Under the pieces are notes generated by a model. The model was not told the DNA's origin and ran no database searches. It worked only from the letters and a program-made list of their open reading frames with translations. The translations under genes were made by a program, and so were the position numbers. A stretch of DNA of 63,340 bases, the filler included, from Diploschistes diacapsis (lineage: Eukaryota): the NCBI GenBank assembly GCA_023645945.1. It is 19 parts of 19 records of this genome, joined end to end, with 100 filler letters (N's around TTAATTAATTAA, not from the genome) between each part and the next. Parts side by side here need not be neighbours in the genome. Positions count along the whole stretch, not along the records: positions 20,338 to 40,561 come from JALAIB010000350.1; 18 more parts are not named here. One strand, given 5' to 3'. Positions 23,210-23,776 of this stretch are shown here, piece after piece (positions within the stretch are counted from its first letter, which is position 1; each line of letters begins with the position of its first letter).

Positions 23210-23776
23210 CTATGCCTCTTCCCCATCCCGCTTGAACAAGGGACAAAAGGGAAACCGGCACTCCGTCTCTTCCTGCTCCGCTTCGGCTTCCCGCTTGTAT
23301 AGGGTGCAAAATTCACCGGGGCATATGCCCTCATCCTTCGCCTCGCGCTTGAACAAGGGCGAAAGGCAAGTGGGGGGATGGGGGCATAACTCATCCTCCG
23401 CATTCCGCCTGAACAAGGGGCACAAGGGACCAGGGCATATGCTCTCCTTTGACGCTTCCAGCTTGAACAGGGCGCAAAGGTGACCGGGGCATATGCCCTC
23501 CTTTTCCGCCTCCTTTTCCGCCTCCGCCTCCCGCTTGAAGAGAGGCATAGGAATGCAGGTTAGCGAGCCTGGCGGAAGGCAGATACCTACGGCATCCTAC
23601 GCGACTGAAGGTTGAGATCCCGTTAGCCTAGTAGACTATGTGCGAGGGGAGCCATGCATTGGAATCACCGCAAGTGTTGAACATTCGGGCGGATTTGGTG
23701 GCTTACCTGGCGTGGGCGCGGCGACTGTAAGACCTGCAAGGCAGGCCAGGAAGATGGATGGCGTAGAGTAGAGCAT
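23210..23776 (-). CDS. Secreted Kex2-processed repeat precursor with six 2-Cys peptides (possibly pseudogenised)
   Basis: Exon 1 23776-23707 MLYSTPSIFLACLAGLTVAAPTP, intron GTAAGC..GCTAAC..AG. Then cores GICLPPGSLTCIPMPLF, GICPGHLCALF, SICPGPLCPLF, LCPHPPTCLSPLF, GICPGEFCTLY, TECRFPFCPLF, separated by KR/RR (one KL) plus acidic spacers. In-frame TAG at 23599-23597 if the first acceptor is used. Confidence 0.85.

Follow-up and report, generated by a model that had tools for sequence, protein, structure and literature searches.

Kex2-processed repeat proteins (KEPs) of fungi are described as a signal peptide followed by repeated short peptides that lie between dibasic sites (PMC6339444, PMC7329392), and the parts of the literature used here report that their cutting by Kex2 and Kex1 and the trimming of the resulting N-termini by Ste13 were followed in other fungi by peptidomics and heterologous expression (PMC9769878, PMC6339444). 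In the portion of the largest survey on which we draw, 2560 of 7878 KEPs are without a homolog, and only 22% of KEPs have a DUF3328 gene as neighbour, at a mean distance of 3.09 genes from the precursor (PMC7329392). Among the KEPs with such neighbours are the precursors of the dikaritins ustiloxin, phomopsin and asperipin and the epichloecyclin precursor GigA, a single gene from which various epichloecyclins have been reported; according to the sections cited, the peptides carry no Cys pair and are cyclised by DUF3328-type enzymes encoded by adjacent genes (PMC10540207, PMC9233826, PMC9769878). The alpha-type mating pheromones of Pezizomycotina, such as WCTRPGQGC of Paracoccidioides and Histoplasma (PMC3464258) and the pheromone of Xylona heveae (PMC6339444, in the part consulted), share the KEP build, with two Cys in each peptide, Pro-Gly within the loop and X-Ala after the cutting site, and are without a DUF3328 gene.

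The locus described here, from the lichen-forming Lecanoromycete Diploschistes diacapsis, resembles the stand-alone KEPs (PMC6339444, PMC7329392, as far as the cited parts describe them) in its predicted signal peptide, in tandem cores between KR/RR sites, in acidic spacers that start with X-Ala and in the lack of a globular domain, and it is without a DUF3328 neighbour, like 78% of KEPs, and without a homolog in the databases searched, like the 2560 mentioned above. It differs from them by cores that carry a Cys pair around a loop of 4 to 7 residues, by a conserved L-F/Y end, by having six different cores in one precursor, and by its lichen-forming host. With GigA and the dikaritins it has in common that one secreted, Kex2-cut precursor would yield several small cyclic peptides, whereas no DUF3328-type gene was seen beside it and cyclisation, if any, would be by plain disulfide. 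It is like the Pezizomycotina alpha pheromones in the shared features named above, but is distinguished from them by the absence of Trp and G-Q, by another Cys spacing, by a hydrophobic tail, by heterogeneous copies and by spacers that could be trimmed only in part. On the strength of sequence features, we regard it as probable that the locus holds a genuine KEP gene restricted to its lineage.

The window (the whole stretch of DNA that was analysed, 63,340 bases) carries on its minus strand a small, unannotated precursor gene in which, as we read the sequence, splicing could join a 70-nt exon to the open stretch at 23586-23210 with the reading frame kept. Translation of the minus strand at 23210-23596 (128 aa, hereafter P0001) gives DAVGICLPPGSLTCIPMPLFKREAEAEKEAEKEGICPGHLCALFKLEASKESICPGPLCPLFRRNAEDELCPHPPTCLSPLFKREAKDEGICPGEFCTLYKREAEAEQEETECRFPFCPLFKRDGEEA, followed by a stop. 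The features of the predicted gene are listed below, with the residues of P0001 given for each repeat unit.

23707..23776, minus strand: exon 1, with the ATG, 23 signal-peptide-like codons and base 1 of a Gly codon that the intron divides
23587..23706, minus strand: proposed intron of 120 nt (predicted), with a GTAAGC donor, a CTAAC box at 23626-23622 and the third AG (23588-23587) as acceptor
23210..23586, minus strand: exon 2, with six repeat units, a DGEEA tail and the stop codon TAG at 23212-23210
23531..23586, minus strand: unit 1 (residues 4-22), 7-residue Cys loop, end LF-KR
23459..23530, minus strand: unit 2 (residues 23-46), 11-residue acidic spacer, 4-residue loop, end LF-KL, a degenerate site
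23405..23458, minus strand: unit 3 (residues 47-64), spacer, 4-residue loop, end LF-RR
23345..23404, minus strand: unit 4 (residues 65-84), spacer, 5-residue loop, end LF-KR
23291..23344, minus strand: unit 5 (residues 85-102), spacer, 4-residue loop, end LY-KR
23228..23290, minus strand: unit 6 (residues 103-123), 10-residue acidic spacer, 4-residue loop, end LF-KR

The repeat frame is closed on its 5' side by a TAG at 23599-23597, and the first unit thus requires an upstream exon. The ATG at 23776, which is the first of its frame and has an A at -3, opens MLYSTPSIFLACLAGLTVAAPTP, with a hydrophobic core (IFLACLAGLTV; best 11-residue Kyte-Doolittle mean 2.54) that is followed by small residues, and the exon ends with A-A-P-T-P, which places two X-Pro dipeptides beyond the likely signal cleavage site. 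Judged by its hydropathy and the predicted splice, exon 1 would supply the N-terminal signal peptide that is expected of a KEP. The GTAAGC donor after base 23707, in phase 1, is the sole donor with G at +5 that joins both frames, and the AG at 23588-23587 is the only acceptor that holds the repeat frame in the phase of the donor. Two other AGs lie between the CTAAC box and the needed acceptor, one of which (23606-23605) leads to a stop and the other (23598-23597) into another frame. The predicted junction reads ...A-P-T-P-G-I-C..., and units 2 and 5 begin with the same G-I-C; the combined match of phase, donor quality and junction would be an unlikely accident. For comparison, both introns of the neighbouring gene for an ETF-ubiquinone oxidoreductase (ETF-QO) are shorter, with their AG about 10 nt past the branch box, and in one of them an AG as close as about 7 nt to the branch box is passed over. 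An alternative model with a donor GTGATT after 23671, the acceptor AG 23598-23597 and a 74-nt intron also stays in frame, but donor position +5 is a T and an odd Cys is introduced, and the model was judged less likely.

The AlphaFold2 run, made on the single sequence, returned a mean pLDDT of 32 with no secondary structure; nothing in this single-sequence model speaks for a Cys-rich repeat domain with a fold of its own, and the model, uninformative by itself, is weakly consistent with a non-globular precursor. As a separate observation, a 7-bp perfect inverted repeat (GGCCAAC ... GTTGGCC, with a 10-nt loop) lies at 23184-23207 of the window and begins three bases past the stop codon of the precursor.

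The six units are built on a constant scaffold, E-A-x-x-E-[GS]-I-C-P-G-x-x-C-x-L-[FY]-[KR]-R, in which the loop and the residue behind the second Cys vary. In each core, one to four residues separate the second Cys from an invariant Leu, which is followed by Phe (five cores) or Tyr (one core), and all 12 Cys and all six L-[FY] ends are kept in spite of heavy divergence elsewhere. No two cores are the same, and the identity of the other units to unit 2 is 29% to 67%. In units 2 to 6, the acidic spacer starts with E-A or N-A and ends with Glu, so that E-A or N-A follows directly after all five internal sites, in keeping with the X-Ala or X-Pro that is looked for behind the Kex2 site of a pheromone precursor. 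Where a KEP is defined by at least three similar short peptides bounded by dibasic sites, the present array has six units, with KR after four cores, RR after one, and KL after core 2. The initial annotation had proposed, from the same DNA, a signal-peptide exon upstream of six non-identical cores, and these proposals stood up well: exon 23776-23707 has the hydrophobic core and can be spliced in frame, and the P0001 translation has exactly two Cys in each core with loops of 7, 4, 4, 5, 4 and 4 residues, a Pro in all six cores, an LF end in five and an LY end in one, and the acidic spacers that had been described. The Kex2-type architecture as a whole was recovered as well, in that a signal peptide precedes the repeated cores, these end at KR/RR sites, and an X-Ala comes after each site. 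A dibasic-type site after each core was also claimed, and this holds for five of the six (four KR, one RR) but fails at the KL of core 2.

To judge whether the array could arise from base composition, a unit pattern (C-x4-7-C-x1-4-[LIM][FY][KR][RKL]), which was written after the data had been seen, was searched in six frames of the window. The results showed six matches, all inside the precursor gene, while 30 first-order Markov copies of the window averaged 0.30 matches, with 2 as the highest count, and among 2000 Markov copies of the exon there was not one with two matches or more. The array is not a compositional accident, with the reservation that the pattern was defined post hoc.

The codons of the invariant Leu are, in the order of the units, CTC, CTG, TTG, TTG, CTA and TTG, and the use of four different codons for one kept residue indicates that the peptide frame has been under selection. 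Synonymous variation was also found at the codons of the conserved Cys, Pro, Gly, Ile, Glu, Ala and Arg. In the three units free of gaps (18 codons by 3), with position classes set post hoc, pS was 0.30 and pN 0.09 at scaffold positions, in comparison to a pS of 0.38 and a pN of 0.57 at variable positions. Units 2 and 3, which form a 54-nt tandem repeat with 84% matches, are the only pair still close in DNA; together with the synonymous codon variation, this suggests that the array is old and that it is the peptide scaffold, rather than the DNA, that has been kept. Two other open frames overlap the repeat (23116-23559 on the minus strand and 23199-23483 on the plus strand) and have no such conserved features.

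The search for relatives covered several kinds of databases. A word-indexed search of 5.8 billion clusters gave 17 candidates that were scored, none of which was kept, and phmmer against 1.84 billion representatives returned no match at E<=0.001. A scan of metagenome contigs gave 591 pattern stretches, none confirmed as a relative; its patterns were exact 8-mers of the precursor, and diverged relatives would therefore escape it. A profile of overlapping double units, run against longer proteins, had as its sole match a Nakaseomyces mating-factor alpha at a non-significant E=9.5, and a sequence search of the PDB was led by yeast mating factor alpha-1 (E=0.5) and then by PCSK9 prodomains (E about 0.55), none of them significant. 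The near-matches to mating factor alpha reflect the KR-EAEA spacers. No Pfam family was found in P0001, and the lack of a match to MF_alpha or MF_alpha_N is weak evidence, as these models were built on yeasts. No homology to a described KEP type was found in the cluster, phmmer, metagenome and profile searches, which would make it a stand-alone KEP. The idea of an undescribed family, which had been put forward in the initial annotation, has to be reduced accordingly to a singleton, for which no second member was found in the cluster, phmmer, metagenome-scan and profile searches, and orphan KEPs are common.

Synteny was followed in 80 metagenome loci around homologs of ETF-QO, with 76% to 86% identity. 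Across these loci we found no ORF with Cys-loop repeats and no secreted KR-periodic ORF, the three matches to the latter being Arg-rich off-frames, and nothing in positions 17000-25000 of the window was conserved in them except the last ETF-QO exon and the overlapping ORFs above 24930. No conservation beyond the internal repeats of the gene was thus found in the searched databases and the 80 loci, where it should be kept in mind that homology searches are blind to unannotated small genes in genomes outside the searched DNA. The ETF-QO gene itself (25044-27100, minus strand), which neighbours the precursor, encodes a protein 81% to 85% identical to proteins of the Lecanoromycetes Lignoscripta, Lambiella, Xylographa, Agyrium, Peltigera and Cladonia, and 90% identical to the closest metagenome proteins, which places the window in a lichen-forming fungus or one of its near relatives. 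FolB lies near ETF-QO in only 7 of the 80 loci, in a different arrangement, and the gene order around ETF-QO is fluid.

Other genes of the window encode LUC7, a CoA-transferase, a cutinase, an MFS protein, a mitochondrial carrier, an SDR, a membrane protein with a fungal rhodopsin domain, an RRM protein, FolB, an ankyrin protein, a DUF7924 protein, Ndc80, Pex14 and a UPF0261 protein. Domains of DUF3328 (PF11807-type), tyrosinase, P450 and methyltransferase were found in none of the 128 stop-to-stop ORFs (at least 80-90 codons) of the 63-kb window, which for ORFs of at least 80-90 aa bears out the earlier remark that no DUF3328/UstY gene is visible. The gene with the fungal rhodopsin domain (PF20684, PTH11-like) has three exons at 15412-16743, 6.5 kb downstream of the precursor; the PTH11-like receptor class is described, in the part of a Peltigera preprint used here, as expanded in lichen fungi (10.64898/2026.06.16.732702). 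The DUF7924 domain (E 2.7e-18) lies in a 455-codon open frame at 33857-35224.

The base composition of the window is uneven. A very AT-rich stretch at 20300-20900 (GC 0.21-0.32), 2.5 kb downstream of the precursor, includes short A/T-rich tandem repeats at 20514-20577 and 20643-20682. Larger AT-rich blocks at 40000-46000 and 50000-63340 (GC 0.29-0.36) have no 90-codon ORFs with Pfam domains; they have the look of repeats degraded by RIP on either side of a GC-rich island, and the blocks at 40-46 kb and 50-63 kb fit the genome of a lichen-forming fungus. The island between them (45981-47325, GC 0.55) has long open frames on both strands, of which the minus-strand frame is a complete UPF0261 protein with N and C domains. 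The UPF0261 family is common in bacteria, and a horizontal origin was raised as a possibility.

Under the KEP reading, the processing of the precursor may be proposed as follows. The signal peptide would take the 148-codon product into the ER, where the Cys pair of each core may be oxidised to a small intramolecular loop; a loop of four residues between the Cys has the ring size of oxytocin, and the disulfide cyclisation of the cores, as first proposed, is putative. In the Golgi, Kex2 would cleave after the four KR and the one RR, Kex1 would strip the basic residues, and a dipeptidyl aminopeptidase of the Ste13 type would trim AP-TP from unit 1 and EA-EA, EA or NA from the others. Such trimming would be partial only, as had been anticipated earlier, because the dipeptide runs stop short of the core, where E-K, S-K, E-D, K-D and E-Q come next; the early end of these runs would leave most peptides with a short acidic extension at the N-terminus, its last residue a Glu, barring another peptidase. 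The pair KL behind core 2 is neither dibasic nor a Kex2 site, so that cores 2 and 3 would stay joined, and five peptides are expected to be secreted, including a double core with four Cys. The release of several peptides, as first proposed, is therefore retained, but the number of six is lowered to five at most. With a constant scaffold and a variable loop, one gene would deliver several different peptides, and their role would most likely be extracellular, as a signal, an antimicrobial or a partner-directed peptide.

What stands against the KEP gene is the complete lack of homologs in the searches, the awkward acceptor at the third AG, the one site decayed to KL, and a signal peptide that was judged by hydropathy. 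The first three of these points would also suit a gene that no longer works, namely the remains of a KEP or pheromone gene in decay, unexpressed or mis-spliced, or even an open frame within a GC-rich minisatellite, to which may be added that other long open frames overlap the repeat. We consider this distinctly unlikely, as the frame is intact across 148 codons with the signal exon in the right phase, codons vary synonymously at conserved residues, and all twelve Cys and six L-[FY] ends have been retained under heavy divergence; a recent minisatellite would in addition have near-identical DNA copies, while only one pair of units is close. An origin as precursor of a further modified RiPP, with tailoring enzymes elsewhere in the genome and with Cys or aromatic residues cross-linked other than by plain disulfide, appears very improbable to us. 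The KEP build is that of dikaritin and epichloecyclin precursors, and a conserved scaffold with variable core positions would also be in agreement with it; moreover, the cited part of a survey of 111 lichen-fungus genomes has many DUF3328 clusters without a findable repeated precursor, which makes unlinked precursors conceivable (PMC12048977). Nevertheless, none of the tailoring domains occurs in the 128 ORFs, and the DUF3328 (UstY) gene that lies within a few genes of dikaritin precursors, at the short mean distance given above for KEPs in general, was not found among these ORFs, a set that may lack exons of fewer than 80-90 codons.

The third alternative is a strongly diverged precursor of an alpha-type mating pheromone (a PPG1/MF-alpha homolog), the peptides of which would have as their target the Ste2-type receptor of partners of the opposite mating type. 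The nearest matches in the profile and PDB searches, non-significant as they are, were to yeast mating factor alpha, and the precursor build is shared, with signal peptide, Kex2 sites and X-Ala after each site. The sections of the literature used here add that in Ascomycota it is "generally only" the alpha pheromones that show a Ste13 signature behind their Kex2 sites, that pheromones of Pezizomycotina typically have two conserved Cys (PMC6339444), that Pro-Gly lies within the loop of WCTRPGQGC (PMC3464258) and of the Xylona motif (PMC6339444), and that nearly all pheromone KEPs are, like the present gene, without a DUF3328 neighbour (PMC7329392). In the literature searched, we found no alpha pheromone of any lichen fungus. 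Set against these likenesses, none of the six cores has a W before the first Cys, a 6-residue Cys spacing (it is 4, 5 or 7 here) or a G-Q, all six have a hydrophobic tail of 3-6 residues behind the second Cys, the six cores differ, whereas the repeats of a pheromone precursor tend to be exact or near-exact copies, and Ste13 could not fully remove the spacers. The absence of the W-C-x6-C / G-Q consensus, which had been remarked upon in the first reading of the DNA, thus applies to all six cores, and the motif WC-x3-G[QE]-x-C does not occur in the 63-kb window, nor does the window contain a cognate receptor gene. The likeness of CRF to the PpgA peptide of A. nidulans, put forward in the first reading, is putative. 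The precursor lacks most of the defining features of alpha pheromones, and we rate a pheromone as no likelier than a decayed gene, that is, quite unlikely.

Within the preferred reading of a working KEP gene, a bolder version can be formulated, in which one gene encodes many loops: a constant Glu-[GS]-Ile-Cys-Pro-Gly...Cys-x-Leu-Phe scaffold would present hypervariable positions in and after a disulfide ring, and the lichen fungus would use the peptides to address its alga, bacteria or competitors. By analogy with the cyclic-peptide precursors of cone snails or plants, the variants would then diversify within one Kex2-cut precursor. This would be the first fungal example of its kind; we hold this version to be unlikely as it stands, though less so than the rivals discussed above. 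If it were true, the pN of 0.57 against a pS of 0.38 at the variable positions would represent diversifying selection and not drift.

An orphan KEP as such is not unusual, and the class already holds thousands of uncharacterised members. What is particular here is the Cys-pair scaffold with variable loops, the presence in a single precursor of six cores that all differ, and the host lineage, the secreted peptides of which are hardly known; to our knowledge, those of lichen-forming fungi in general are almost unexplored. In the portion of the lichen RiPP survey cited, which covers 111 lichen-fungus genomes, its two conserved cluster clans were found to be without a repeated precursor (PMC12048977). 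Should the product be a pheromone after all, it would show how far the pheromone consensus of Pezizomycotina can drift; and if the gene is expressed, it would offer an entry point of five to six short, synthesisable peptides, for which the photobiont, bacteria and the Ste2 receptor could serve as test systems.
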